From the NCBI GenBank assembly GCA_000004985.1, contig GG738896.1: 64,000 nt of DNA; one strand, written 5' to 3'. Of this stretch, positions 1,842 to 64,000 are shown in pieces. The stretch comes from Naegleria gruberi (lineage: Eukaryota). Positions within the stretch are counted from its first letter, which is position 1. The number at the start of each line of letters is the position of its first letter. A model generated the notes under the pieces. It was not told the origin of the DNA, did not search any database, and worked only from the letters and a program-made list of their open reading frames with translations. A program made the position numbers and the translations under genes.

Positions 1842-3109
1842 TTATAATTGTTCTTCTTGTTGTTTTTGTTCTTCAGTAGTGTATTCATAAACATAATCAG
1901 TAATAATTTCCTTAGCTTCATCAGATAAATATTTAGAAATTGCTTTCTGGTCAACTTTAGCGAGAGAATCCCACTCATTCGAATGTTCCTTCTTGAAATC
2001 TGCCAAAATATCCTGAACAAACAAAGCCAAACACTTATTTCTCAATTTAAATGAAGTGATAATATTACCAATTTTGGAAATGGCAGATTCCAATCGATTA
2101 TCATTCAAATATTGAACTATTAAATCGAATACTGGAGTGGAAACAGATTCATTATCAAAGGTTGGCTTTTTGGTTTTTTTTCTAGGTCTTGGTGGCTTTT
2201 TTGGTTGCACAACTTCCTTAAATGCTTCATTCTTCTTCTTGATAATAAATCGTTCTCCCTTTTCCTTTGTGAACATATCTCTGATTGGCTTAATAACCAC
2301 TCCTTCACAGATATTTGGACATGATTCAACGAGTGGGAGGTTGTAGAATAATTGTGGAATTTTGGTTGGATAATTGCAATCGTATTCTAAACATTCTTCC
2401 AAAGTTCCTCTCATCACTTCTTTGGCATATCGAGAAATTCCACATTCAGTGAGTAATTGAATCATCTTGTCATAGGCCAAATAGAATCCTTCTTCCTTCT
2501 TTGTTTCTACATTTAATCCAAATACATAGACATCGAACATATAGAAATCATAATCAGGAGTATAATACACATGTTTTTGAATTGGATATCTTCCTTTTAC
2601 ATTTTCTATTTGATCATGAGGATATTGACCTCCAAAACTATTTCAAGAATTCCAAAATAAATAAATTTTACACTTAAGGACACTTACATTTCTCCATAGA
2701 AATTAGCTCTTCTCACCTTAAAATTATCATTCGAATAGATATCACAAATACTCTTAAAAACCTTCTTTATCTGTTCCTCATATCTATTCCTCACAATCTC
2801 CACAGCCTCAGGAAAGAAATCGTCATCTTCATGAGGTGATTTTTTCTTCTTTTGTTTTTCCTCTTCATCCAATCCAACATATTGTCTTCGGGATGCAACC
2901 TGGCATTGAATATCTTCCACAAGACACGAATTGGCAGTCTGATAATTATCCCTCCACATTACAAAACTAAAATTACATCCATGAATCTTTTCAGAGACAA
3001 CCCAAGGAATTGATGGATCATAATTCTCATCACGGATTAAATTCTTGGCAAATTCTTGATAGTGATTCTCGATGGAACTGTACGCTTTGAAATGATGTTG
3101 ATTCTTCAT
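1842..3109 (-). CDS. ATP-dependent RNA ligase of the Rnl2 / nucleotidyltransferase superfamily (PF09414-like). Two exons, join(3109..2688, 2637..1842), with a 50-nt intron.
   Basis: Exon 1 is ORF 2684..3109 and contains motif I 'EKIHGCNFSF' (KxHGxN, the lysine adenylylation site typical of T4 Rnl2 and trypanosome REL1). The track stop after 'GEM' is really a donor, AT|GTAAGTG. A TTTCAAG|AATAG-type acceptor at 2639/2638 continues in phase into ORF 1842..2570. Exon 2 carries motif IV 'CEGVVIKP' (EGxxxK) and motif V 'FIIKKKN'. Confidence 0.6.
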
Positions 3110-4427: not shown

Positions 4428-5591
4428 TCAACAATTATTCATACGGTAAGCAAATGCATACTGAAGAGGAAATTGTAAATCTTGAATTGAATCTTCCTTT
4501 GAACTAATCTCAAAATAAACTAATTTTGCATTTGAGAATTTCATTGCATCATTATATGTGGGCACAAGTTCAGCAATATATTCAGAAATTACTTGTTGAG
4601 AGACTTGTCTTTTCAAATCCCTCTTCATTCCCAAAATAATAAACAGTATGCTATCTTTTCTGGTATCTTCTTTCATTTCTCTGAAAATGTAAAATTGCTG
4701 GTCCAAATCGACAACTTGTTTTTTCATATCCTCAAATGAGGCGGAATCACTCAAATCAAAGCAGAAGAAAACAACACGGGCTCCTCTATAGTAAGATAAT
4801 GAGTTATGTGAAAATTGTGGATCACCACTTGTGTCCCAAATTAGAAATTTCATCATACATTGACTATCGTTAAAGTATTTCGGATAGAATTCCACGCCAA
4901 TTGTTGGACGATATATACTGCTAAATTCTGATTGGTGTAACCTTTTCAAATATTCACTCTTTCCACATTTCATAGGTCCTAACAATGTCACATTATGGAG
5001 ATAGTCAATTTTCTTCTCTGGACGAGATTGACTCTTTCGAATTTCACTCATAAATCTTTCATACAATAAAACATAATCCCGTGGATGCACCATCTGCATC
5101 TGACTCTTCTCGTATGCAACTGGTTTGAAATGTATCCAAGTTTCATTGGCAAGCTTATTCAATTCTTGTCGCCAAAAAATATCCAATCCCGACCAAACGT
5201 TGAAACTCTTTGAAACTCTTTCCATCATTATAACATCAAAGATTGTAAGATAATCCATAATGTGCATTTTCATCTCATCAGGTAATTTGATAATTAAAAT
5301 TCCTAATTTTGTTGTTATTATTGAATTGTTAGTTTCATCATGTATACTATCAATTTGTTGTTGTTCATTGAAATTTTCATCATGATCACAATTAATTAAT
5401 TGATTATTATTCCGATCATCTTGAGAAATTAAATTATTCTCTTCTTGCTGTTCCGATGTGTTGGGAAGACTTTGAACCAATGCTGAATATCTCGCTGATG
5501 AAACCAATTTCCAATGCGAAAATTGTTGATATCTTGAAAAATCGATTACCTTTCTAGTACTACTTGCTGGCGGCACTTGTTTTTGTCCCAT
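4428..5591 (-). CDS. F-box domain protein with a C-terminal Rab-like small GTPase domain that has degenerate G3/G4 motifs. 387 aa.
   Basis: An F-box-like 'LPDEMKMHIMDYLTIFDVIMMERVSKSFNVW' lies at about aa 100-135. The Ras/Rab fold starts at about aa 210: G1 'GPMKCGKSE', switch-I 'TIGVEF', 'WDTSGDPQF' (DTAGQ degenerated to DTSGD), 'YYRGA', and G4 NKxD replaced by 'GMKRD'. Confidence 0.55.
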   Translation of the reverse strand: MGQKQVPPASSTRKVIDFSRYQQFSHWKLVSSARYSALVQSLPNTSEQQEENNLISQDDRNNNQLINCDHDENFNEQQQIDSIHDETNNSIITTKLGILIIKLPDEMKMHIMDYLTIFDVIMMERVSKSFNVWSGLDIFWRQELNKLANETWIHFKPVAYEKSQMQMVHPRDYVLLYERFMSEIRKSQSRPEKKIDYLHNVTLLGPMKCGKSEYLKRLHQSEFSSIYRPTIGVEFYPKYFNDSQCMMKFLIWDTSGDPQFSHNSLSYYRGARVVFFCFDLSDSASFEDMKKQVVDLDQQFYIFREMKEDTRKDSILFIILGMKRDLKRQVSQQVISEYIAELVPTYNDAMKFSNAKLVYFEISSKEDSIQDLQFPLQYAFAYRMNNC

Positions 5592-5811
5592 TTTTTGTAA
5601 TGCTTTCCTTTACTAGCATCACACATGGTAGAACAAACAAACTCGGCTTGTTACCTGCCTGGATGATCCTTCCACCCGTTAGTTACCTTAATATTTTTCA
5701 AATTGTCTTCTTGCAAGGCTTGTAAATTTTTTTGGCGAACAAGACTCTGCGGTAATTAAGCTTGAACTATTAAATGATTGGAAAGATATAAAAAATAATA
5801 AAACAATCATC

Positions 5812-6687: not shown

Positions 6688-7593
6688 TTAAGCATTGAAA
6701 CCAGCAGCTCTAACAACTTGTGCAGAGGTGTATGATGAAACACTGAATCCAGAATCATTAACTTCGAAAACACCATTAGAGTAACTCTTAGCCAAAACCC
6801 AATGTCCACCATTTCTGACGTTCAAAATGACAACCTTTCCTTGACAGACCCAATTGATAATAGCTTGCTTATCAGTAGTTTGTCCAAGATAATTGAATCC
6901 AAGTCTAGAAACAGCTCCCCAAACAAACAAATTTCCATAATAACCTCCATTCTTCAACAAGTATTGGTTCAATTGACCTGGGTTCATTGAACTCTTTCCT
7001 CTACCATTCAAAGCAGAACAAACTGAATTCATCAAACAACCAACTTGACAAATAGTGGAAGAACTTCCAAGTCTATCACCACCCCATCTAGAATCACATT
7101 GTTTAAAGAGTGGATAATTGTAATTTTGTCTACAACCAGATGTAGAACCACCACCACCACCTCCATTTTGAACAACAGTTAAGAAATTAGAGGCAGCATA
7201 ACCAGTTCCAAAACTACCAGAAACCTTATACCAAGTATAACCACATCCACTTTGGACTTCACCAGTGAATTTGACAACTTGACCATTTCCAAGAGTAGTA
7301 ATAATTGATTTACCAGTGCATGGTCCACTTCTGACATTCAAAGCAGTGGTTGCTTTCAAGGAAGCTCCACTAGCAATTGATGAATCAGATTCGGCATCTG
7401 ACATTTCGAAATCTTCTTCAGATTCGGATTGAACACTTTGAATGGCATTAATTGGAAGATCAATAGCGAAATTGGTGGCCAATGAAGGTTCTCCAACCAA
7501 TTTGACACTTCTATTGTTTGGATAAGCACGTTGACAAGAGACAACGACAGCAAATGTCAAGAGCAATAAAATTCCCACGAAGATTTTGTTCAT
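6688..7593 (-). CDS. Secreted protein: signal peptide, then a bacterial-type SH3 (SH3b) domain, a Gly-rich linker, and a papain-like cysteine peptidase of the C39-like family (Peptidase_C39_2/CHAP-like).
   Basis: The likely true start is ATG 7593..7591 ('MNKIFVGILLLLTFAVVVSCQ', a signal peptide). The track ORF begins 22 codons earlier at a non-ATG. SH3b-like region: 'ALNVRSGPCTGKSIITTLGNGQVVKFTGEVQSGCGYTWYKV'. Linker: 'GGGGGGSTSG'. Peptidase region: 'DSRWGGDRLGSSSTICQVGCLMNSVCSALNG' (catalytic Cys in a Q..CG.. context) and later 'NGGHWVLAKSY' (catalytic His). Confidence 0.5.
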   Translation of the reverse strand: MNKIFVGILLLLTFAVVVSCQRAYPNNRSVKLVGEPSLATNFAIDLPINAIQSVQSESEEDFEMSDAESDSSIASGASLKATTALNVRSGPCTGKSIITTLGNGQVVKFTGEVQSGCGYTWYKVSGSFGTGYAASNFLTVVQNGGGGGGSTSGCRQNYNYPLFKQCDSRWGGDRLGSSSTICQVGCLMNSVCSALNGRGKSSMNPGQLNQYLLKNGGYYGNLFVWGAVSRLGFNYLGQTTDKQAIINWVCQGKVVILNVRNGGHWVLAKSYSNGVFEVNDSGFSVSSYTSAQVVRAAGFNA

Positions 7594-8008
7594 TTTTTTT
7601 GTGATGATTTTTTGGCAGTTGAAAGGTTGAATATTAAAATCAAATTGCTGCTCAGCCAATACGGATAATAAACATGAACGAGATGGTAATGAAAGAATAA
7701 AAATAGAATGTTAAATAATTGGGGCATTATGATATTGAGGGGGCATTGAAACGAATCGAATAGAAAATGTGCATTTATTCCAAACAAAATACTAAGTGAT
7801 GCTTGAAAGGTAATCTTGCGCTGGAGTAACCGACAACATGATCTTGAAATGCATGCTTGTTGTTTGAAGAAGGTGGTTATTGTAATAGTTTGTGATTGTT
7901 CAAATGGATGTTAGATAGAGAAATTTCAATCTTTTTGCATCTACAGTTCTATCAAATAACTTCTTTCCAATATTCGAATAAGATTTTTACAAAATATACA
8001 ATAGGATT

Positions 8009-9316: not shown

Positions 9317-12300
9317 TTATTCAACCTTAGATGATTGCTCTGATTGTTCTAGAGAGAGGGATCTGAAAATAGGGAAGAAGGAAGTAACATCATCATTGTC
9401 TTCACATCGATCGTAAATGTATTGTTCTGTACCTGTGAATTCAGTCACTGATTTTTGGTAGAGGTAAATTAAAAAGTAGACATAATTCCACAAGTAGTGT
9501 TCCTCCTTGACATGCTTTTCAAAGGTGATACCTTCATTGGCTCTTGTATCGAATTTAGTTCGTTCCAATCCACAAATAAAACACTTATCTCGAATGTCCT
9601 TCTTTCTGTCTTCTCTTTCATTTCTCAGTACTTCAAACGAATCGAGAATGACACCAAACACAACGTTAACAAGTAACACAATAACTATCACTAAAAAGGA
9701 AAGGTCAAGTATGGCTCTCTGAACTGAAACATTTGGATCATAAATATCCTCCCAAAAAGATTCTCCTCTAAAGCCATAATCCAACATGGTCACATAGCAA
9801 GCTAACATATCTTCACATGTCTTGTCGCCTGTCTTGGAGATTTTAAAATCTGAAGAAAAGAAGGTAAAATAGAGTGTACCAAAGAAGAATAAGGCAATAC
9901 ACAACAACATTCCTGTAAAGAACAAACGTTTCACATTCGAAGTAACTGATTTCAACACATCGGTCAATGACTTGAAGATGTAAACCATTTCAAAAAGCTG
10001 TATCGAGTAAATAATTGGAGTTATCAACAATCCAATCACAGAGACTACAATGTAAATAATAAAATACCAAATTTGAGAATCTTGTATGGTATATAAAAAG
10101 CATTTGGTCATAAAATCAAAATCTCTTGGAATTGAGTCCCACGTTTCGTTTTTCTTTAGCTTGAATCGTTTCTTCACTTCCAACGTCAAGAAGAGTGATA
10201 CATAAATGACAAATAGAATTACCAGGAAAATCAATTGTGTCACACCAACAATAATAAGAATTATATCACTTGCAAGATTTCTAGGTGCTGTAGTTTTGGT
10301 GAGAGCATATACATCAAAGTCACTGCCAGGTAAAGGTATTTGAGAATACTCTGTTGTTGCATAAATTCTCTTAAATGTTCCCAAAACAATAATATTAATA
10401 ATAACAGAGAGGAAGAATGAAGACAATCTCAAGTAATCCCACCAATTGGCAATATATTCCCATGATGCTGTTTTAACCTCTTGTTTCTTCTTTTTCTTTC
10501 GTTTTGCTAGCAAATTGCTGGTTGTGGCAACGAGAGACATTGAAGGCAAAAGATTTTCCATTTCCTCCTCTGGTTCCTCTTCTTCTTTCTTGTTGAGATT
10601 CGGAATAGTAAAAGTCTTTTTCATATTTTCATAGTGACACATTTCCACATAGAATGTACTGAATGTGTCATTGTACAATTTCCTAACTTTTTCTTGTGGA
10701 GTCATTACGTGCAACGAATTGGCATAGTTGCTTCTTGCCTTATCGATAATATTGTTACATATTGTTGGTTTGGGAAAGTAGATCTTTTCAAGTACGTTAT
10801 TTCTCAATACTTCAATGCTACCAGTTCTTTGTTTGAAATAAGAGAGCTCCTTTGAATTGGTTTGGAAAAAGTTGGCTACTCTTGATTCCTCTTCCAAAGC
10901 TTGAGTACCCTTTCTGAATTCAGTCTCACTGTCCCTGATCATGGAGAGAAGGAAAAAGATGTGAGTTCCCAAGTCATCGTATTGCAATCTAATCTTCTCG
11001 AGATTGTCCTCCATATAGTCGTCGACACGGATTGGCTTCTTTGAACTCTTCTCAGATTGATACAAAACATGGAATCCAAAGTCTTTACGCATTCTCTTTT
11101 TGAGTCTTTCAAGATCATCACAATCATCATGGTTATTACCCGATAGAGTTTCGAACAATCTCAAAATGTACAATAATTTTTGTTCAAAATCATCCAAATT
11201 CAAAGAATTTTTCATGAATTCTAATGTGACTGTGTTTCTTCCTTCCAATAGAGATATTAAGAAGAGTGTAATTTCCTTCTTGAGGTCAAGCTCTTGTTCC
11301 TTCAACAACTTGCTGTCATCGTAGGTCTTACTCATGATTTCATTGATAAGTCTTGGATAAATCTTATTGGATGTACCAATTAAATTTTGGTTAAAGACAG
11401 CAGGTCCTTGGACAAATTCGGTCAGGGTCTTAAAACCTTGGATGGCTACTTGAACATTGTCTGCATCCAATTTCTTTTCCAAAGCAATCAAATATTCAAT
11501 AATTTCCGTAATTAAATCAAAGCTGAAAATATTTCTTGGTTGATGTTTCAATAGGGCTTGATTTTTGGTATTATGGCCTTCACACAATAATCTCAAAAAT
11601 TCCATAGTGTTAAAAATGAATCCCTTTTCTACAAATTCCACACCAACTTCATCTTCTTCGTTATCATGGTCAGCATTGAGGTTAGTTGTAGACTTTTTCT
11701 GGTTAGCTAGTGCCAACTCCTTGTCTCTCTTTTTCTTCAAGTGATTCTTCATTTGTTTGATTTCAATCTTTGAGAGACGGATTCTGTCTCTAAGAGACAT
11801 GAAAAATTCGGTAGAGTCTTGATCTGTAAGAAGCGAATAAATATGATTCTGAACGTCAAGATCTCCGTCATTCAATATTAAAATACCAAGCTCCAAAGCT
11901 GATTTTGCAATTTGATGGTGGTTAGAGTTGAGGAATTCAATAACTACCTCAGGAATTTTCTTTTCCACCAAATCTAATTTAAGAGTTGATTCTTCGGTTT
12001 GTTGGTTTTGCCTTTCAACAATACTCTTCAAAATATCCATACCAAAGAGTCCTACCTTCATGTTCTGAAGAAGTAAACCAGAACTATTCAAGTCACGTAA
12101 TACATTGACGAGTGTTTTGATAAATCCATCATATTTGATAAATATGGCAGCAAGCTCTGAAAAGTTGGAAAAGTTTCTATTAATCTTGGAAATTATTCTG
12201 TCTTTCAAGTACTTTTTGTATGTGTTGTGGATAAGTTCGTCCTTCTCGGTACTGGTTGATGTTTGTATTCTTGATCTATGTACCTTGGCTTTAGTGGCCT

Positions 12301-15300
12301 TATTTGAAATGAAATTAGAAATTGCTTTCTGACTAGTTGAAGACATACTTCTCTTCAACATGGCCTGAATACATTTGAGAACTTTATCCCTATTCTCTGG
12401 ATTTGGTGTATGTTTGTGAAGTTCTATGAGTTTTATCAACAAATCTTCTGCAATATCCAACTGTTCTTTTGTCAGATTTGGAGGTGGGAAGTGGAGATGG
12501 AAATAATCTCTCACACAAGGAATCATAATATCAAACAAATAGGTATTATCAACTTGATAGGTTTCTTGATCTTCCTCACTAGGTCCAACGACTTTTGGAA
12601 GTGCTACAGAGTATGTTTTCGAAGATCGTTTGGAAGCAGTTGTTGACAATCCACGGTTTTTGGTTGGAGTAGCAAACAGTGAAGTGTTTGAGAGGGTTTT
12701 GCTTGGTGTTGTTGGGGTTCGAGTATGGGCATGCATAATACTTTGTCTTTCACCTTTTTGTGTGGATAAAATCAAGTCGTTACCATCTGATTCATTTGAA
12801 TAGGTCATTTCTAACACTTCCAATTCAGTAACCATTTTAGAGAATAACTTGAAAAGCATTGGATGATGAACATTTACCATCTTGCTCTCAGATTCTGTAG
12901 AGTCATCTGATGCCTTTTCAACATTCAAGTAAATTTCATCAATAACTTTAACCAATGGATTTCTCAATACAGGTAGAGTACAACAAATAACTTGTTCTAA
13001 AAGTTCTTCATAGCTGTAGAGGGTTTGTAATTTAAGCTCACTCTCTCTGTTTTTACCATCAGCAAGAGAGGCCAACAAGTATAAAAGGGCAATGTGATAA
13101 TTTAAAATACCATCTGGTTCAGTTTTGTGTTCACCTTTGATAATTCTTTGATTACGTTCTCTGAGACCTTCTTCGTCTTTGAAAAGAATCATAATGTCCT
13201 TCTTTCTTTCGAGCAGATATTTGGTAATGAGTGATTGGTTTCGTTTGATTGGATTGCCATTATTTGTTCCCAGAATGACATGCAAGAACAACAACATGAA
13301 AGAGCAAGGTTGCTCAGCAATTTGGTCAATGTAGTGTTCGATTAATTTTTCTTCAATAGTACTGCACAGACCTCTATTGTCTCTTACCATTTCACAAAGG
13401 AGAATGACAATCTTCTTATCTAGACTTCTATTCTCACCAATAGTGTGAATAAAGAATTCCAATTGTTTGAACATAATCTTTTGATTGTCTTGATTTCCTC
13501 TAACAAAAGCAATTAAAATATCAATACCAATCTCTTCAATTTCCTTGCTCACAATATAATCCTTCTTGAGGAATGTGAGAATAATATCATAAATGAAGAG
13601 ATTTCTCACTATTCTTTGTGATCTTTGACCATTCTTCTTGATATCTGATAGGATTTCATTGAGAGCTTTTAGGACTTTTTTCTCTTCCTGTTCTGTGAGT
13701 CTTCTAGTACCAAAATAATTGCTTTGACCATAACCAAAAACAGATCGCAACTCAACTACCTGTGAAAGTAGCAAATCGTAGGATTTAGCCATTTCTCTCG
13801 AAACGATAAGTTCAATCTTTGGAAGAACTTCACATAATTCTTGAGCAGATCTGTACTTTCTAATTAGTAAATCAAGGCAGGTTGTAGCGAGTTCCTTATT
13901 TTCATATTTGGTCAGCGAAAGAATTTTAACATCGAATCGATCCATCTTGTTGAAAATAACATCCTTTTCGAGAATATCTTTGATTACAGCATATTCATTA
14001 GAGTCAATTTCGGCAAGTCTTTTCTGTTGTAAAGCTCTATTGTCCATTGGTATCACCTCTTGTTCTCTAAGTACAGTCTCAATCTCTTCCTCTCTGTATT
14101 TCTTCCAAAAGAATTGCAAGAATTTTGTCACTCTCTTGTCTAAAATAATGTCTAGAATCATGTGGAAGATGGAAGCAATTTCAATTTTGATCTTCATGAG
14201 GGTTAAATTTTCTTCTACGTTTTTGTGTCTTTCTTCCTCACTAAGAATTCTACCATCCTTCTTGTCATTATCTCCTCTGAGCATATCAAAGAGAGAATTC
14301 AACAAATCACCCTCCTCAAAGTCTATCAATGTAAGAACTCCAAATTCCAACATTCTCTTACACATAATTACAACGTATAATGTAAAGTTGTTGTGATCCT
14401 TCTTTTCTAAAGACACATCCAAGCTAACATTCTCTCTAAGGAATTTCCCTAAAAAATCTTTGATTTCTGCCAAATCCTTTGAGTTGCCGTCTTCTTTTGA
14501 TCTTTGATTGAGAGTACTGGTTTTTCTGGTGTAGTCAATCAGTGGTTTCTTTTCTCTCTTCTCCGTATCAATGAAAGTTTGGATCAAAAGCTTTACAAAT
14601 GATGTTCTGACGGCTGGTGTTAAATTCTTATCAGAGACACATTTGTGGACAACTTCGTAGGTGAACAGAGAAACAACAGATCTTCTCGCATCCTCAATTT
14701 CTTCATTTCTTCCTGTACAGAGGGCAGCAAAAAGACGAATTTCCTCTTGGAAGAAGATGAGTTGTTCATAATTTGGTCTTGTGTATCCATTGTATGTATC
14801 ATCTGTTGCAGACTGAGAGAAACTAATCAAGTCTATTTCATCATGATTGACTTCTACCACAACCTTGTCTTCATTGTTAAGCTTTGGAATGATAAAAACT
14901 CTTCTCAATTGGTCCTTATATTTTGAAAAAAGCAAATTACCAATATATACCTGATTTTTCACCACAGTTTTACCTTCACAAATGATCAAGCTAGTCAAAA
15001 AGGATAAATAGACAGCCTTCTTCAAGCTCTTGGAACTTTGTCGCATACCAATCTTTGATGTGTTTTCAAAGAGAAGCTTGACGAAAAAGTCAATTTGTGA
15101 CTCGGTAATCTTGTTCAAAAGTGGATAATTGTTGGATAAGATTTCCAACAGAGCTTCACTTGCAGCAATGCTATGTTCAATCAGAGTTTGGATAAAGTTG
15201 ATATATTGTGCCATGTAGAGACCGTTAGATTCGTTTGAAAGGACAAACTGTCTAATGAGTCTGAAGGAGTACTGAACCACATCAAAATAAAGTGCCTTCT

Positions 15301-17664
15301 CTGGCTTTTCATAAATTAAAGATAAATCCTCAATTGATAAATATTTCTTCAATAATAGAGTGATATTTTCCATTACAAGACCAATGACTCCCATATCTCT
15401 GATGATATTTTGTCTAAGTTTAACAGGAATACCACCTCTTGTTAGAGGGTCTGTCTCTTCACTAATAGTACAAAATCTAATGCAATTTGCCAATGCACCA
15501 ATGTAGAGTTTGATATCTGACTTGTCAATGAGCGAGTCGTCCAACTTGGATTTGAAATACCTAATAATTGGCATGTAACCAGCTACGGTGAGTGCATCAT
15601 TCAAATCCTCATGTGAAACAGCTGAAAAATTGAAAACATCCTGTTCAAACATTTTCAAAGATGAAGTTACTCTCTGATAGGTTGAGTCAGCAAGTGGTCT
15701 AGATATGTGTACCCAAGAATTAGTGGCTTCATGCCTCAATCTAAAGTAATCGGTGGTTTGAACTTTCTCACCCTTCTTTTGTCCTCCAGTCGAGTCGGTG
15801 AAATGGAAGACACTGGTTGGTATTGGTTGTGTAATCAAGTCATCAAAGTTTTCAACATGAAGAGTCCACAATGAATCATTTTGTGTTACGCTGCCTGATC
15901 TATTTCCTCGTGGAGTGGCTACAATTGAACTTTTTCTAGGTGCATTAACTCCAAGTTGGCTCAAGTTATCACCAGATGTTGGTGTGTTTTCTCGTTCATA
16001 TCTTTCTTCAATGGCATCATCCGCTTCAATGGTTATTCCTTTAATAGGACGAATCACCATGTATTTTCCACTTGCCAAGTGTCTTAGACGGAATTTCGAA
16101 GTCCACTTTACAGTACCAGAACAGCTAGAGTCTAAAAATTCCAATTGCCACAAAGTTTGAGGACTCACATAGTCAGAAGATTTAGATTCCATACCAGCCA
16201 AGCTTGTATCCTCAGAGTCGTTGATTTGTAGATTGCTTGATTTCTTGAAAAATTTAATTCTATCCGTTTTTTCATTCACTCCAATATATCCTTCCAATTC
16301 CTTGTGGTATATTCTCATAATGGTGGATCCTGCTTTGAGTTTTCTATTTGTTTCATCATTTTGTGGTGTGTATTTTTGGTAGAGTTTCATTCTCCACCTA
16401 GTGAATGCAGTACTATTCGCCATGTTAACTTCTCTTCTACTATCGTAGGAATATTTTCCTCTATTTCGTGATAATTTTACAGCTTGTTGAGCTAATTCTG
16501 TGTATGAAGAATTTTCATTCACTCTTTGATAGGTACCATCATTGTCTTCTCCAGTTGTGTATCTATAATAGGATAAGTGAATAAATTGGTTGGACTTTTT
16601 GTTGTAAAGTCTAATTTGATCAGTGAGTTTAACTTGATCTCCATCCTTTTGAAAACTGGAATATGGCATTATTTGAAAGTATGAATAGGTAGATCCTTCT
16701 TTATCGAGGGCCAATCTCATACAATCCTTTTGCATTTCTGCAGATTCTCTTGCTACTGTCAGATAGCACTGTGTTTGTACATGATACAATTGTACTGTTT
16801 GTCCATAGACAACTGGTTTTGAAAGGTTTCTTTGTGATTCCATCCTATTTTGTTCAAGTTCTCTTTCAGCTCGTTGTTCCAATTGTTGATATTCTGTTGA
16901 GAAGGAGGCTGTCGAAGGCATTACATTATTCTTGTTATCCTTTGTTTTTTTGTTGGCCTCTTTCAACTCTTGTTCTTCTTTGAAGGTTTTGAACTTTTTC
17001 AGTGCTGAATAACTCTTTGGATGACAAATCTTGAAAACACAATTAGAAAAGTTTGGTGTAAAGAAGGAAGAATCCTTTTCTGAAATGACAGATTCCACCA
17101 GACCACATCTAGCTTGTGGTTTGTTTCTAAAATATTGATGAAATAATAAAAGTAGTATTTAACAGAGAATAAAGAAGGTGAATAATTAGTTGAATATTTA
17201 AACAATATTTACCCTTTAACATTCTCGGAACAAGTCAAATTAATACCATCCACACTCAAGAACCCAATCATTGAATTACCAGTACTTTTTGATGACAAAT
17301 CCGTATAGAAGGAAATTTCCTCTCCAATTCTCAAATAATCTCCCTTCTTTTTCATCATCATATTATTCATCCACAATTGTTGCTCATCCTCCTTCACATC
17401 ACTCATCACATCTTCATCCTCATCATACAAATGATGATCAAAGCCTTGTTGTTGCTGTGCAGAAGAGGATGATGATGACGAATATTCGGAATGTTGTTCA
17501 TGATGATGATTTGATGTGGCGCCATTATTTTTAACGGCAGAAGTGGCGCTTACCGATACGATGAGTTGTTCTTGTTGTTGATGAAATAAGAGTGCATAGT
17601 CAAAGAGGTGTTGTGATGATGGTTCGGAAGAGTTGCTATTGTTATGATTATTGGATAGTGTCAT
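9317..17664 (-). CDS. Inositol-1,4,5-trisphosphate-receptor-like intracellular Ca2+ release channel (IP3R/RyR superfamily), about 2750 aa. Two exons, join(17664..17213, 17126..9317), with an 86-nt intron.
   Basis: Exon 1 is track ORF 17209..17664, starting at ATG 17664. It has an Asn/Ser/Gln/His-rich leader, then the start of the suppressor/beta-trefoil domain 'LRIGEEISFYTD...GFLSVDG' (compare IP3R1 'LHIGDIVSLYAEGS..GFIST'). A GG|GTAAAT donor at 17212 and a TTTTAG acceptor at 17127 join in phase 2 to the 2593-aa ORF ('...ARCGLVESV...CVFKICHPKSYSALKKF', compare 'DRCVV...CLFKLCPMNRYSAQKQF'). The C-terminus has six-TM channel helices, a pore region, and the diagnostic '[44 protein letters not shown]' (IP3R '[36 protein letters not shown]'). 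Confidence 0.8.
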
Positions 17665-59362: not shown

Positions 59363-60981
59363 CTTGGGTTTGGGTTGGTGGGGTTTGGGTGAGTTTTATA
59401 CACTTTCATACAATAGAGTGATATTGAAATGTACCCTTTGATATTTCTGGATGGGTAGCATGATTTAGTGATGATTCCGACAATAAAAATCATATATTGT
59501 TCATATAATTATCAAGATATTGTATAATTTATTAAATATAAAGTGGGTAATATTGAATATTCTTTGTAGGAGCGGAAGCACTTATTCTTGTCAGTTGGAG
59601 TCAGTATTGTATTAAGGTTCATTTTAGGAATCTTAAAAAAATACAATAACAACTCACCTGCATCAACATCATCAAGTATATCATCTATATTGAATATAAA
59701 GCAACAGCAAGAATGTATGGAGTTGATTCAACATGATTATTGGATTGGAGAGATGGCAAAAATATTACTATTATTGTATTTGTCAAGTTGGAAGTACCCT
59801 CAGGATCATCAGCGAGGTTTCCTCTTCATCTCTTCTTGTTAGAGAGGTTTTTCATCCACAAGATGGTCATCTTCTTCATTGAAGAGGTTGCTTTATTATT
59901 AAGCACTGAGAGAAGCGTTTTTAAATTTTATTTTGATGAAATAAATCAAAATTTATTACGCACAACACATCAAGAACAACAACAGCAACATGCTGATACA
60001 CCATCATCATCACTGGGTGAATTGGCCATCATTGTTGTATAATTTCTTGGAATTTATTGGATTAACAGTAAATTTTGGAATTACTCTCCTATTGAAGATG
60101 GAACATCAGCAACATCACCAAGATGATCTTCAATTGGATAGTATTGTTTTCAGAAGTGGTTTCACGCTTTTTGTGGGCTCTTTCAACATACCATCATCAG
60201 AATGGTCATCATCTTGTTGAGGGAAGATGTTCAACCTTGTTTTGGAAAGTAGAATATCTTACCACCACTCTATTCTCCTATTTTGATTGGATTGGTGGAG
60301 GTGCCACCACCTCTTCATACATTGGGTTTGGGTTGGTGGGGTTTGGGTGAGTTTTATACACTTTCATACAATAGAGTGATATTGAAATGTACCCTTTGAT
60401 ATTTCTGGATGGGTAGCATGATTTAGTGATGATTCCGACAATAAAAATCATATATTGTTCATATAATTATCAAGATATTGTATAATTTATTAAATATAAA
60501 GTGGGTAATATTGAATATTCTTTGTAGGAGCGGAAGCACTTATTCTTGTCAGTTGGAGTCAGTATTGTATTAAGGTTCATTTAAGGAATCTTAAAAAAAT
60601 ACAATAACAACTCACCTGCATCAACATCATCAAGTATATCATCTATATTGAATATAAAGCAACAGCAAGAATGTATGGAGTTGATTCAACATGATTATTG
60701 GATTGGAGAGATGGCAAAAATATTACTATTATTGTATTTGTCAAGTTGGAAGTACCCTCAGGATCATCAGCGAGGTTTCCTCTTCATCTCTTCTTGTTAG
60801 AGAGGTTTTTCATCCACAAGATGGTCATCTTCTTCAATTGAAGAGGTTGCTTTATTATTAAGCACTGAGAGAAGCGTTTTTAAATTTTATTTTGATGAAA
60901 TAAATCAAAATTTATTACGCACAACACATCAAGAACAACAACAGCAACATGCTGATACACCATCATCATCACTGGGTGAAT
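59363..60981. repeat. Subtelomeric direct tandem repeat with a 959-bp unit. There are at least 1.7 copies, the second cut off by the assembly gap. Each unit begins with a degenerate telomere-like tract (GGGTTTGGGTTGGTGGGGTTTGGGTGAG).
   Basis: 59365-60323 and 60324-60981 are near-identical, offset exactly 959 bp. An example is '...gagttttatacactttcatacaatagagtgatattgaaatgtaccctttgatatttctggatgggtagcatgatttagtgatgattccgac...' in both copies. Only single-base differences were seen, for example tttaggaatc versus ttaaggaatc. Confidence 0.7.
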
Positions 60982-62796
60982 NNNNNNNNNNNNNNNNNNN
61001 NNNNNNNNNNNNNNNNNNNNNNNNNNNNNNNNNNNNNNNNNNNNNNNNNNNNNNNNNNNNNNNNNNNNNNNNNNNNNNNNNNNNNNNNNNNNNNNNNNNN
61101 NNNNNNNNNNNNNNNNNNNNNNNNNNNNNNNNNNNNNNNNNNNNNNNNNNNNNNNNNNNNNNNNNNNNNNNNNNNNNNNNNNNNNNNNNNNNNNNNNNNN
61201 NNNNNNNNNNNNNNNNNNNNNNNNNNNNNNNNNNNNNNNNNNNNNNNNNNNNNNNNNNNNNNNNNNNNNNNNNNNNNNNNNNNNNNNNNNNNNNNNNNNN
61301 NNNNNNNNNNNNNNNNNNNNNNNNNNNNNNNNNNNNNNNNNNNNNNNNNNNNNNNNNNNNNNNNNNNNNNNNNNNNNNNNNNNNNNNNNNNNNNNNNNNN
61401 NNNNNNNNNNNNNNNNNNNNNNNNNNNNNNNNNNNNNNNNNNNNNNNNNNNNNNNNNNNNNNNNNNNNNNNNNNNNNNNNNNNNNNNNNNNNNNNNNNNN
61501 NNNNNNNNNNNNNNNNNNNNNNNNNNNNNNNNNNNNNNNNNNNNNNNNNNNNNNNNNNNNNNNNNNNNNNNNNNNNNNNNNNNNNNNNNNNNNNNNNNNN
61601 NNNNNNNNNNNNNNNNNNNNNNNNNNNNNNNNNNNNNNNNNNNNNNNNNNNNNNNNNNNNNNNNNNNNNNNNNNNNNNNNNNNNNNNNNNNNNNNNNNNN
61701 NNNNNNNNNNNNNNNNNNNNNNNNNNNNNNNNNNNNNNNNNNNNNNNNNNNNNNNNNNNNNNNNNNNNNNNNNNNNNNNNNNNNNNNNNNNNNNNNNNNN
61801 NNNNNNNNNNNNNNNNNNNNNNNNNNNNNNNNNNNNNNNNNNNNNNNNNNNNNNNNNNNNNNNNNNNNNNNNNNNNNNNNNNNNNNNNNNNNNNNNNNNN
61901 NNNNNNNNNNNNNNNNNNNNNNNNNNNNNNNNNNNNNNNNNNNNNNNNNNNNNNNNNNNNNNNNNNNNNNNNNNNNNNNNNNNNNNNNNNNNNNNNNNNN
62001 NNNNNNNNNNNNNNNNNNNNNNNNNNNNNNNNNNNNNNNNNNNNNNNNNNNNNNNNNNNNNNNNNNNNNNNNNNNNNNNNNNNNNNNNNNNNNNNNNNNN
62101 NNNNNNNNNNNNNNNNNNNNNNNNNNNNNNNNNNNNNNNNNNNNNNNNNNNNNNNNNNNNNNNNNNNNNNNNNNNNNNNNNNNNNNNNNNNNNNNNNNNN
62201 NNNNNNNNNNNNNNNNNNNNNNNNNNNNNNNNNNNNNNNNNNNNNNNNNNNNNNNNNNNNNNNNNNNNNNNNNNNNNNNNNNNNNNNNNNNNNNNNNNNN
62301 NNNNNNNNNNNNNNNNNNNNNNNNNNNNNNNNNNNNNNNNNNNNNNNNNNNNNNNNNNNNNNNNNNNNNNNNNNNNNNNNNNNNNNNNNNNNNNNNNNNN
62401 NNNNNNNNNNNNNNNNNNNNNNNNNNNNNNNNNNNNNNNNNNNNNNNNNNNNNNNNNNNNNNNNNNNNNNNNNNNNNNNNNNNNNNNNNNNNNNNNNNNN
62501 NNNNNNNNNNNNNNNNNNNNNNNNNNNNNNNNNNNNNNNNNNNNNNNNNNNNNNNNNNNNNNNNNNNNNNNNNNNNNNNNNNNNNNNNNNNNNNNNNNNN
62601 NNNNNNNNNNNNNNNNNNNNNNNNNNNNNNNNNNNNNNNNNNNNNNNNNNNNNNNNNNNNNNNNNNNNNNNNNNNNNNNNNNNNNNNNNNNNNNNNNNNN
62701 NNNNNNNNNNNNNNNNNNNNNNNNNNNNNNNNNNNNNNNNNNNNNNNNNNNNNNNNNNNNNNNNNNNNNNNNNNNNNNNNNNNNNNNNNNNNNNNN
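60982..62796. other. Assembly gap of 1815 N.
   Basis: Run of n characters. The flanks suggest it hides further copies of the 959-bp subtelomeric repeat. Confidence 0.95.
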
Positions 62797-63024
62797 TAAA
62801 AGAGGTCAAGGAGAGATTTCAAAACATAAAATAAATTATATTTTCGAGATGTACTATTGATTTCCAATCGATTGATATGTATTTTGTAGATTGAGGATGT
62901 GGTTCTTTATTTGAAGAGTTCCTCCTTAACTTACCAAGTAAACCCTGATATTTCACCCTTTACCTTACTGAATGATGGAATATTCACCAAAATATCTGTA
63001 AACTGAACCATATATATTATTAGA

Positions 63025-63500: not shown

Positions 63501-63548
63501 GATTTAATATGTTTTGATGAGAAACTCAAAAGTTATAGTTGACCTATT

Positions 63549-64000
63549 GGGTTTGGGTTGGGTTTGGGTTTGGGTTGGGTTTGGGTTTGGGTTTGGGTTT
63601 GGGTTTGGGTTTGGGTTTGGGTTTGGGTTTGGGTTTGGGTTTGGGTTTGGGTTTGGGTTTGGGTTTGGGTTTGGGTTTGGGTTTGGGTTTGGGTTTGGGT
63701 TTGGGTTTGGGTTTGGGTTTGGGTTTGGGTTTGGGTTTGGGTTTGGGTTTGGGTTTGGGTTTGGGTTTGGGTTTGGGTTTGGGTTTGGGTTTGGGTTTGG
63801 GTTTGGGTTTGGGTTTGGGTTTGGGTTTGGGTTTGGGTTTGGGTTTGGGTTTGGGTTTGGGTTTGGGTTTGGGTTTGGGTTTGGGTTTGGGTTTGGGTTT
63901 GGGTTTGGGTTTGGGTTTGGGTTTGGGTTTGGGTTTGGGTTTGGGTTTGGGTTTGGGTTTGGGTTTGGGTTTGGGTTTGGGTTTGGGTTTGGGTTTGGGT
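63549..64000 (+). repeat. Telomere: about 75 tandem GGGTTT (TTTGGG) hexamers with occasional GGGTT variants. The G-rich strand is oriented toward the window end.
   Basis: Perfect hexamer periodicity to the last base of the window. The TG-rich strand runs 5'->3' toward the terminus, as expected for a right chromosome end. Confidence 0.85.

Follow-up and report, generated by a model that had tools for sequence, protein, structure and literature searches.

We analyzed a 64-kb stretch of the Naegleria gruberi genome (64,000 nucleotides of contig GG738896.1, assembly GCA_000004985.1; hereafter the window) and focused on one gene that encodes an F-box and a Rab-like GTPase (G) domain in a single protein. 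The gene is one uninterrupted open reading frame (ORF) on the minus strand, with an ATG start, 387 codons and a stop codon (Table 1). Its translation is 100% identical over 387 residues to a protein deposited as "rab family GTPase [Naegleria gruberi]" (XP_002672693.1 / EFC39949.1). The start codon is secure because the opening MGQKQ is common to relatives of the protein, and the N-terminus is unambiguous because the in-frame open stretch (4431-5609) continues for only 6 codons ahead of the ATG. From the N- to the C-terminus, the protein consists of a disordered Q/S/N-rich region, the F-box, a conserved helical linker and the Rab-like G domain. A first-pass annotation, made from the DNA alone, had proposed that an F-box and a Rab-like G domain share one polypeptide. 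This was borne out by the single ORF and by Pfam, which matched Ras and placed F-box narrowly above its gathering score.

We searched 1.84 billion representative sequences exhaustively with phmmer. At E ≤ 1e-3 there were 15,876 matches, and almost all were ordinary Rabs. About 14 of the top matches aligned over the span that begins at the F-box and includes the G domain. These collinear relatives came from N. gruberi, N. lovaniensis and ENA/JGI environmental contigs, and two of the N. lovaniensis proteins carry the name "F-box domain-containing protein". Because the same collinear layout recurs in all three sources, the fusion is not an artefact of the gene model. For the motif comparisons below we aligned 16 sequences, XP_002672693.1 and 15 relatives. 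The relatives are 21-38% identical to XP_002672693.1 and none exceeds 38%. For the closest paralogue, XP_002670446.1 (P0002), the alignment covered no more than 49% of the query, because its public model is mis-spliced: it has 321 aa, versus 373 aa in the corrected model of Herman et al. Table S8, and is without part of the F-box C-terminus and linker.

The F-box of XP_002672693.1 (motif LPDEM...VSKSF..W...FW at residues 103-140) passed profile detection, but only just: PF00646 matched residues 101-141 with 21.0 bits, the gathering score being 20.5, and the F-box-like model PF12937 stayed below its Pfam threshold in this protein (19.9 versus 24.3 bits). The family gave a clearer picture. We scanned six clade members, namely the XP_002672693.1 ORF and five models that Herman et al. 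give in corrected form in Table S8, and all six matched Pfam F-box and F-box-like (best 2.2e-7). A profile built from the 16 clade members, which began at the F-box and stopped where the G domain starts, agreed with this: when it was compared with all PDB sequences, 31 of the 33 matches at E ≤ 1 were F-box proteins. They included KDM2A/B (3e-4), Cdc4 (1e-3), FBXW8, FBXW7 and FBXL5, and further Legionella AnkB, FBXO4, Skp2 and beta-TrCP. AlphaFold2 (AF2) predicted confident helices over residues 95-150, with a predicted local distance difference test (pLDDT) score of ~76-82 in the full-length model and 83-90 when residues 95-196 were modelled alone. A Foldseek search of PDB with the latter model returned ten matches, all of them F-box proteins in Skp1 complexes, at E-values of 2.8-9 (for example Fbw7, 2.3 Å over 46 columns, E-value above 1), a result that is consistent with an F-box and is not independent proof of one. 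Judged from sequence, the evidence for an F-box is thus marginal for XP_002672693.1 by itself and solid at the level of the family. Between the F-box and the G domain lies a linker in which W..(L)W is conserved; it also contains an F-K-P element and, running into the G domain, a long helix (residues 170-189).

The G domain is Rab-like. Pfam matched Ras to residues 201-367 (8.6e-23), with overlapping matches to Roc (2.1e-15) and Arf (2.3e-8). Among 654 PDB sequence matches, the best 60 were all Rab, Ypt or Sec4 proteins, with Rab32/38, Rab1, Rab11 and Rab8 at ~1e-14; scores in these best 60 were similar across Rab32/38, Rab1, Rab11 and Rab8, and the domain could be assigned by orthology to none of the conserved eukaryotic Rab subfamilies. 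Structure prediction confirmed the G-fold: in Foldseek, the AF2 domain superposed on Rab8a (Rab8a-GppNHp), Rab10, Rab9 and others with a target-normalised template modelling (TM) score of ~0.8 and an E-value of ~1e-10. The motifs picked out in the first-pass annotation (TIGVEF, WDTSGD, YYRGA and GMKRD) were all found where they belong in the domain, YYRGA at residues 267-271. Of the RabF1-F5 family motifs of Pereira-Leal and Seabra, RabF1 (IGVEF), RabF2 (KFLIW) and RabF4 (YYRGA) are present and RabF3 (QFSHNS) and RabF5 (FFCFDLS) have diverged. The hydrophobic triad through which Rabs bind effectors is kept (Phe235 in IGVEF, Trp252, and Tyr267/268 in YYRGA).

Table 1. Features of the F-box-Rab-like gene and its product; positions are those of the window.
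Feature	Residues	Position	Strand	Evidence or remark
Complete single-exon ORF		4428..5591	-	387 aa; stop codon 4428-4430; = XP_002672693.1 / EFC39949.1
N-terminal Met-Gly-Gln		5583..5591	-	Candidate N-myristoylation site; Gly2 kept in 15/17 clade members
Q/S/N-rich region, poorly conserved, predicted disordered	1-94	5310..5591	-	AF2 pLDDT <50; composition; poor alignment
F-box, LPDEMKMHIMDYL...VSKSF..W	101-141	5169..5291	-	Pfam; family Pfam matches; profile against PDB; AF2 helices
Linker, clade-specific	142-196	5004..5168	-	Alignment (W140, P157, S187 conserved); AF2
Rab-like G domain	197-387	4431..5003	-	Pfam Ras 8.6e-23; PDB matches; Foldseek
G1 P-loop GPMKCGKS	205-212	4956..4979	-	GxxxxGKS intact; Cys before GK clade-conserved
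Switch I / RabF1 YRPTIGVEF	227-235	4887..4913	-	Mg-binding Thr230
G3 WDTSGD	252-257	4821..4838	-	DxxG kept (Asp253, Gly256); Asp257 replaces catalytic Gln
G4 LGMKRDL	320-326	4614..4634	-	Met322 replaces Asn; Lys323 and Asp325 kept
G5 EISSK	361-365	4497..4511	-	SxK kept (Ser363/Lys365)
C-terminus YRMNNC		4431..4448	-	One terminal Cys; no CC/CXC/CaaX motif

The canonical set of Rab G motifs is incomplete in XP_002672693.1: G1, G2 and G5 are intact, and G3 (DTSGD, altered at the Gln) and G4 (GMKRD, altered at the Asn) deviate as the first-pass annotation had described. These deviations are shared. In the 16-sequence alignment none of the proteins has Gln at the G3 position after DxxG, where D, H, S, E, N, G and K occur, and none has Asn as the first residue of G4, which is L, M or T throughout (clade pattern [LMT]K[RSKM][DE]). 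XP_002669601*, a Table S8 model outside this alignment, does have Gln at G3. Because the degenerate G3 and G4 motifs are common to the aligned relatives, they are a signature of the clade and not a private decay of one copy. GK[ST], the switch-I Thr, DxxG, the G4 Lys and Asp, and the G5 SxK are conserved across the clade, and XP_002672693.1 has every one of the family-invariant residues (W133, G205, G210, K211, G256, D279, S285, G321, K323, Y359, F360, E361 and P375). Clade hidden Markov models (HMMs), in which the query itself was included, scored the protein at 77 bits over the N-terminal part and 232 bits over the G domain. The same HMMs found no second paralogue in any of the six frames of the window.

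What do the two substitutions mean for the nucleotide pocket? The first-pass annotation had suggested a non-hydrolysing or nucleotide-free pseudo-GTPase. The second of these proposals finds no support: the P-loop, the Mg-binding residues Ser212 and Thr230, Asp253/Gly256, Lys323, Asp325 (the residue for guanine specificity) and the SSK of G5 are all kept. Since the determinants of nucleotide and Mg binding are intact save for the G4 Asn, the pocket appears capable of binding guanine nucleotide and a nucleotide-free state is unlikely. Met at the G4 Asn position is moreover tolerated in working Rabs, because an oomycete Rab domain that is otherwise canonical (P0011) also has GMKCD. The proposal of a non-hydrolysing enzyme is an inference only. 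The catalytic G3 Gln is indeed missing, so that slow intrinsic hydrolysis is plausible. Rab GTPase-activating proteins (GAPs) of the TBC type, however, provide a Gln finger in trans; the G domain of XP_002672693.1 may therefore still hydrolyse GTP with the assistance of a GAP.

The two ends of the protein also depart from ordinary Rabs. We found no C-terminal di-cysteine or CaaX prenylation motif in XP_002672693.1 and no CC, CXC or CaaX motif at the C-terminus of any aligned relative. We considered the terminal Cys as a prenylation site typical of the family and rejected it, as no relative has a C-terminal Cys; since the relatives have no such motif, the lone Cys is probably incidental. At the other end, 15 of 17 clade N-termini start with Met-Gly-(Gln/Asn), and 8 of the 17 fit the PROSITE N-myristoylation pattern PS00008. 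The conserved Met-Gly suggests N-myristoylation in the clade. The N-terminus of XP_002672693.1 itself (GQKQVP), in which +5 is Val and +6 is Pro, does not fit the strict PS00008 pattern, and for this reason we retain its N-myristoylation only as a possibility.

The Rab and F-box fusion of this protein was already catalogued in 2021 and is not a discovery of ours. The Ras superfamily of N. gruberi was annotated anew by Herman et al. 2021 (BMC Biol 19:142, PMC8296547). In their Table S8, XP_002672693.1 is entered as "Rab", and "F-box" is given as an additional domain; the pseudogene column is empty, the model is uncorrected and there is no orthologue outside Heterolobosea. Because the accession occurs only once in the Table S8 file, the protein is absent from the sheet of one-to-one N. 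fowleri orthologues. The same authors described three divergent Naegleria-specific Rab-like clades whose conserved N-terminal extension is identifiable as an F-box, noted recent birth-and-death evolution with disrupted copies and pseudogenes in these clades (Supplementary Material 4 of PMC8296547), and proposed "GTPase-dependent ubiquitination" for them. XP_002672693.1 is a member of these clades: it has the collinear extension, F-box, linker and divergent Rab-like domain, and among them it is a divergent paralogue that does not differ in kind. The first-pass annotation had called the architecture unusual. Across eukaryotes this holds, but the architecture is not new, given Table S8 and the FRP proteins of Euglenozoa discussed below. 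The G3 and G4 substitutions are not discussed in PMC8296547, the word "myristoyl" occurs nowhere in its supplements, and the N-terminal Gly is not discussed there. Our additions are incremental: the clade-wide G3/G4 signature, the lack of prenylation combined with an N-terminal Gly that is conserved, and the similarities to FRP.

The best working analogy for such a protein is Rab40, which likewise joins a Rab-type G domain to an adaptor box for a cullin-RING ligase (CRL). Members of the Rab40 subfamily carry a C-terminal SOCS box and act as substrate receptors of CRL5, with the Rab domain thought to select the target (PMC8129794, PMC10509765). The Rab40b-Cullin5 complex targets EPLIN, so that a Rab with a cullin-adaptor box can serve as the substrate receptor of an E3 ubiquitin ligase (PMC8129794). 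The two fusions are nevertheless not homologous. The box of Rab40 is a SOCS box for Elongin BC-Cul5 and lies at the C-terminus, whereas that of XP_002672693.1 is an F-box for Skp1-Cul1 and lies at the N-terminus; we found no Pfam match to a SOCS box at E ≤ 1 in XP_002672693.1, in which the G domain runs to the C-terminus. Rab40 also keeps canonical G motifs and C-terminal prenylation. RhoBTB offers a second parallel, as it too combines an atypical small-GTPase domain with a cullin adaptor module; it differs in having a Rho GTPase, placed N-terminally, and a BTB-Cul3 adaptor. RhoBTB is present in Naegleria (PMC8296547), and a RhoBTB1-Cul3 precedent has been described (PMC13437954). By analogy, XP_002672693.1 would follow the same logic as Rab40-SOCS-Cullin5 and RhoBTB-Cullin3 through a third type of cullin adaptor, while belonging to neither family.

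Another parallel comes from FRP of Euglenozoa. TbFRP and its relatives combine a FYVE domain with an F-box and a Rab18-like GTPase and have no prenylation motif (PMC3593210). Common to FRP and XP_002672693.1 are an F-box upstream of a Rab-like GTPase, the lack of a C-terminal prenylation motif and source organisms that belong to Discoba. In FRP, membrane targeting is assigned to the N-terminus, as we propose for any membrane attachment of XP_002672693.1. The FYVE domain is present in FRP and absent from XP_002672693.1, which gave no Pfam match to it and whose residues 1-94 are predicted to be disordered. No orthologue in N. gruberi was reported by the authors of the FRP study (PMC3593210). We also considered long proteins among the top phmmer matches as FRP-like candidates and rejected them, for they were multi-Rab tandems, Rab-kinase fusions or Rab-TerD fusions; the eight multidomain proteins of greatest length within the top 150 matches, which we scanned, included no FYVE protein. 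One could imagine that the Naegleria F-box-Rab-like proteins and FRP descend from one discoban ancestor (anchor, F-box, unprenylated Rab), that in Naegleria an N-myristoyl anchor replaced FYVE, and that the proteins would be membrane-tethered SCF (Skp1-Cul1-F-box) receptors through which Rab effectors are ubiquitinated in dependence on GTP. We regard this scenario as speculative and unlikely.

F-boxes stand upstream of Rab domains outside Discoba as well. In the transcriptome of the amoebozoan Luapelamoeba hula, two proteins (P0243 and P0151) carry an F-box or F-box-like segment upstream of a near-canonical Rab domain; in P0243 the F-box-like match is 3.8e-7 and that of the Ras-family domain 8.1e-50. 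A Mortierella alpina protein (P0108) is a weaker case, also with a near-canonical Rab domain, but with the F-box below threshold and the unit tandemly repeated. In place of the DTSGD of XP_002672693.1, G3 reads DAAGQ in M. alpina and WDTAGPE (Pro for Gln) in L. hula; G4, which we read in M. alpina only, is GNKSD there versus MKRD in XP_002672693.1. Neither the L. hula nor the M. alpina proteins matched the N-terminal HMM of the Naegleria clade. They are thus probably independent fusions, and F-box-Rab fusions seem to have arisen repeatedly. Many other top phmmer matches outside the family (P0092, P0093, P0096, P0097, P0103 and others), from protist or metagenome sources, have 2-4 tandem Rab domains or combine a Rab with a kinase or with TerD.

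Taken together, the most reasonable reading by analogy is that XP_002672693.1 is a lineage-specific paralogue that acts as an SCF substrate receptor, with the Rab-like domain recruiting targets according to its nucleotide state; we give this reading an about even chance. The F-box would dock on Skp1 and thereby on Cul1-Rbx1. The G domain would bind GTP, with slow hydrolysis when unaided, and effector-like proteins would bind to its switch/interswitch surface, which keeps Phe235, Trp252 and Tyr267/268; the SCF complex would then ubiquitinate these proteins. The choice of substrate would vary with the nucleotide state and perhaps also with membrane location, and any membrane attachment would be through the N-terminus, perhaps by myristoylation, and not through a C-terminal prenyl group. 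Several observations weigh against such a role. The protein's own F-box score is marginal and PF12937 falls under threshold; every Foldseek match to an F-box has an E-value above 1; and the N-terminus fails the strict myristoylation pattern. Constraint on the gene may also be weak, because the family undergoes birth-and-death evolution with pseudogenes, no one-to-one N. fowleri orthologue is listed and no relative is more than 38% identical.

Alternatively, the F-box could mark the GTPase itself for SCF, so that the protein would be a rapidly self-degrading, short-lived switch and not a substrate receptor. Autoubiquitination is common among F-box proteins. Self-turnover was also suggested by the TbFRP authors for the trypanosome FYVE-F-box-GTPase, which is rapidly proteolysed and regulated by density (PMC3593210). 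By definition, however, an F-box is the Skp1-docking element of receptors and not a degron, and the conservation of the Rab effector-binding triad implies that partners are bound; self-turnover and a receptor role are, besides, not mutually exclusive. We consider self-turnover unlikely.

A Rab-type G domain and a possible N-terminal membrane anchor would suit a non-SCF complex of Skp1 and the F-box protein that acts directly in membrane traffic, without a cullin or substrate ubiquitination. Yeast Rcy1-Skp1, which reportedly functions in endosome-Golgi recycling, is the precedent. Sequence does not tell a non-SCF role from an SCF role, XP_002672693.1 has no similarity to Rcy1 beyond the F-box, with Pfam matches to F-box and GTPase families only, and we assign the traffic role a low probability.

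The gene might also be a decaying or redundant copy in a family with fast turnover, its frame still open and its constraint low. Such a fate would agree with the recent birth-and-death evolution and disrupted copies reported for these clades (PMC8296547), with the lack of a listed one-to-one N. fowleri orthologue and with a nearest relative of 38% identity. Yet Table S8 has no entry in the pseudogene column for this protein, the frame of 387 codons is intact, its start matches the MGQ N-terminus of the family, and the 13 family-invariant residues are all present. We consider decay improbable.

In the remaining alternative the G domain would be a pseudo-GTPase free of nucleotide, with no role beyond that of a static scaffold for binding. 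The G4 Asn and G3 Gln are missing in XP_002672693.1 and its aligned relatives, and substitutions of Ras N116 reduce nucleotide affinity; but GxxxxGKS, the switch-I Thr, DxxG, the G4 Lys/Asp and SxK are conserved at 21-38% identity, which is hard to explain without a bound nucleotide and weighs more against the scaffold than against any other of these alternatives. The otherwise canonical oomycete Rab domain also has GMKCD, and we think a scaffold very unlikely.

The surroundings of the gene are uninformative on its function, as its neighbours in this eukaryotic genome are unrelated eukaryotic genes: an RNA ligase, an NmrA-like protein, an SH3_3-domain protein and a channel of the IP3R/RyR type. 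Low GC and densely packed ORFs had led us to consider that the window might stem from a giant virus or a prokaryote; we rejected this in view of the 100% match of the ORF to N. gruberi and the eukaryotic neighbours, among them the IP3R/RyR-like channel. Two ORFs on the minus strand (1842-2570 and 2684-3109) encode the RNA_ligase N- and C-terminal parts, plus T4_Rnl2_C, of a T4 Rnl2-like RNA ligase; because the ligase is split over these adjacent ORFs, an intron of ~110 bp is implied between them. The ORF at 6688-7659 (minus strand) encodes a protein of secreted type with a hydrophobic signal-like N-terminus and an SH3_3 domain of bacterial type (1.3e-10), its C-terminal half being rich in Cys, and is a possible candidate for bacterial ancestry. 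Farther along, a single uninterrupted ORF (9317-17098, minus strand) encodes a 2593-aa IP3-receptor/ryanodine-receptor-type channel with the domains Ins145_P3_rec, MIR, RIH, RIH_assoc and Ion_trans. Positions 60982-62796 are an assembly gap of 1815 N, which accounts for the apparent GC fraction of 0.17-0.22 and the spurious ~620-aa ORFs on both strands at 60929-62867. The last positions (63547-64000) hold ~76 near-perfect copies of TTGGGT (unit TTTGGG), the G-rich strand running 5' to 3' toward the window end, with a low-GC stretch just inside the array; the array looks like a telomere at the scaffold end.

The value of XP_002672693.1 taken alone is modest, since both the fusion and the family are on record; two small additions may guide experiments, namely that G3 Gln and G4 Asn are lost across the clade and that a conserved N-terminal Gly takes the place of C-terminal prenylation. 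If the Naegleria proteins are indeed SCF receptors gated by a Rab-like switch, then the genus would have all three types of cullin-adaptor/GTPase fusion, namely F-box, BTB and, by analogy to animals, SOCS, with one of the types expanded to dozens of copies. This would suggest that GTPase-dependent ubiquitination forms a major layer of regulation in an amoeboflagellate, perhaps where the cell meets its environment. If, in addition, FRP and the Naegleria proteins did share ancestry, GTPase-gated ubiquitination would be old and lineage-wide and not a recent curiosity of Naegleria.

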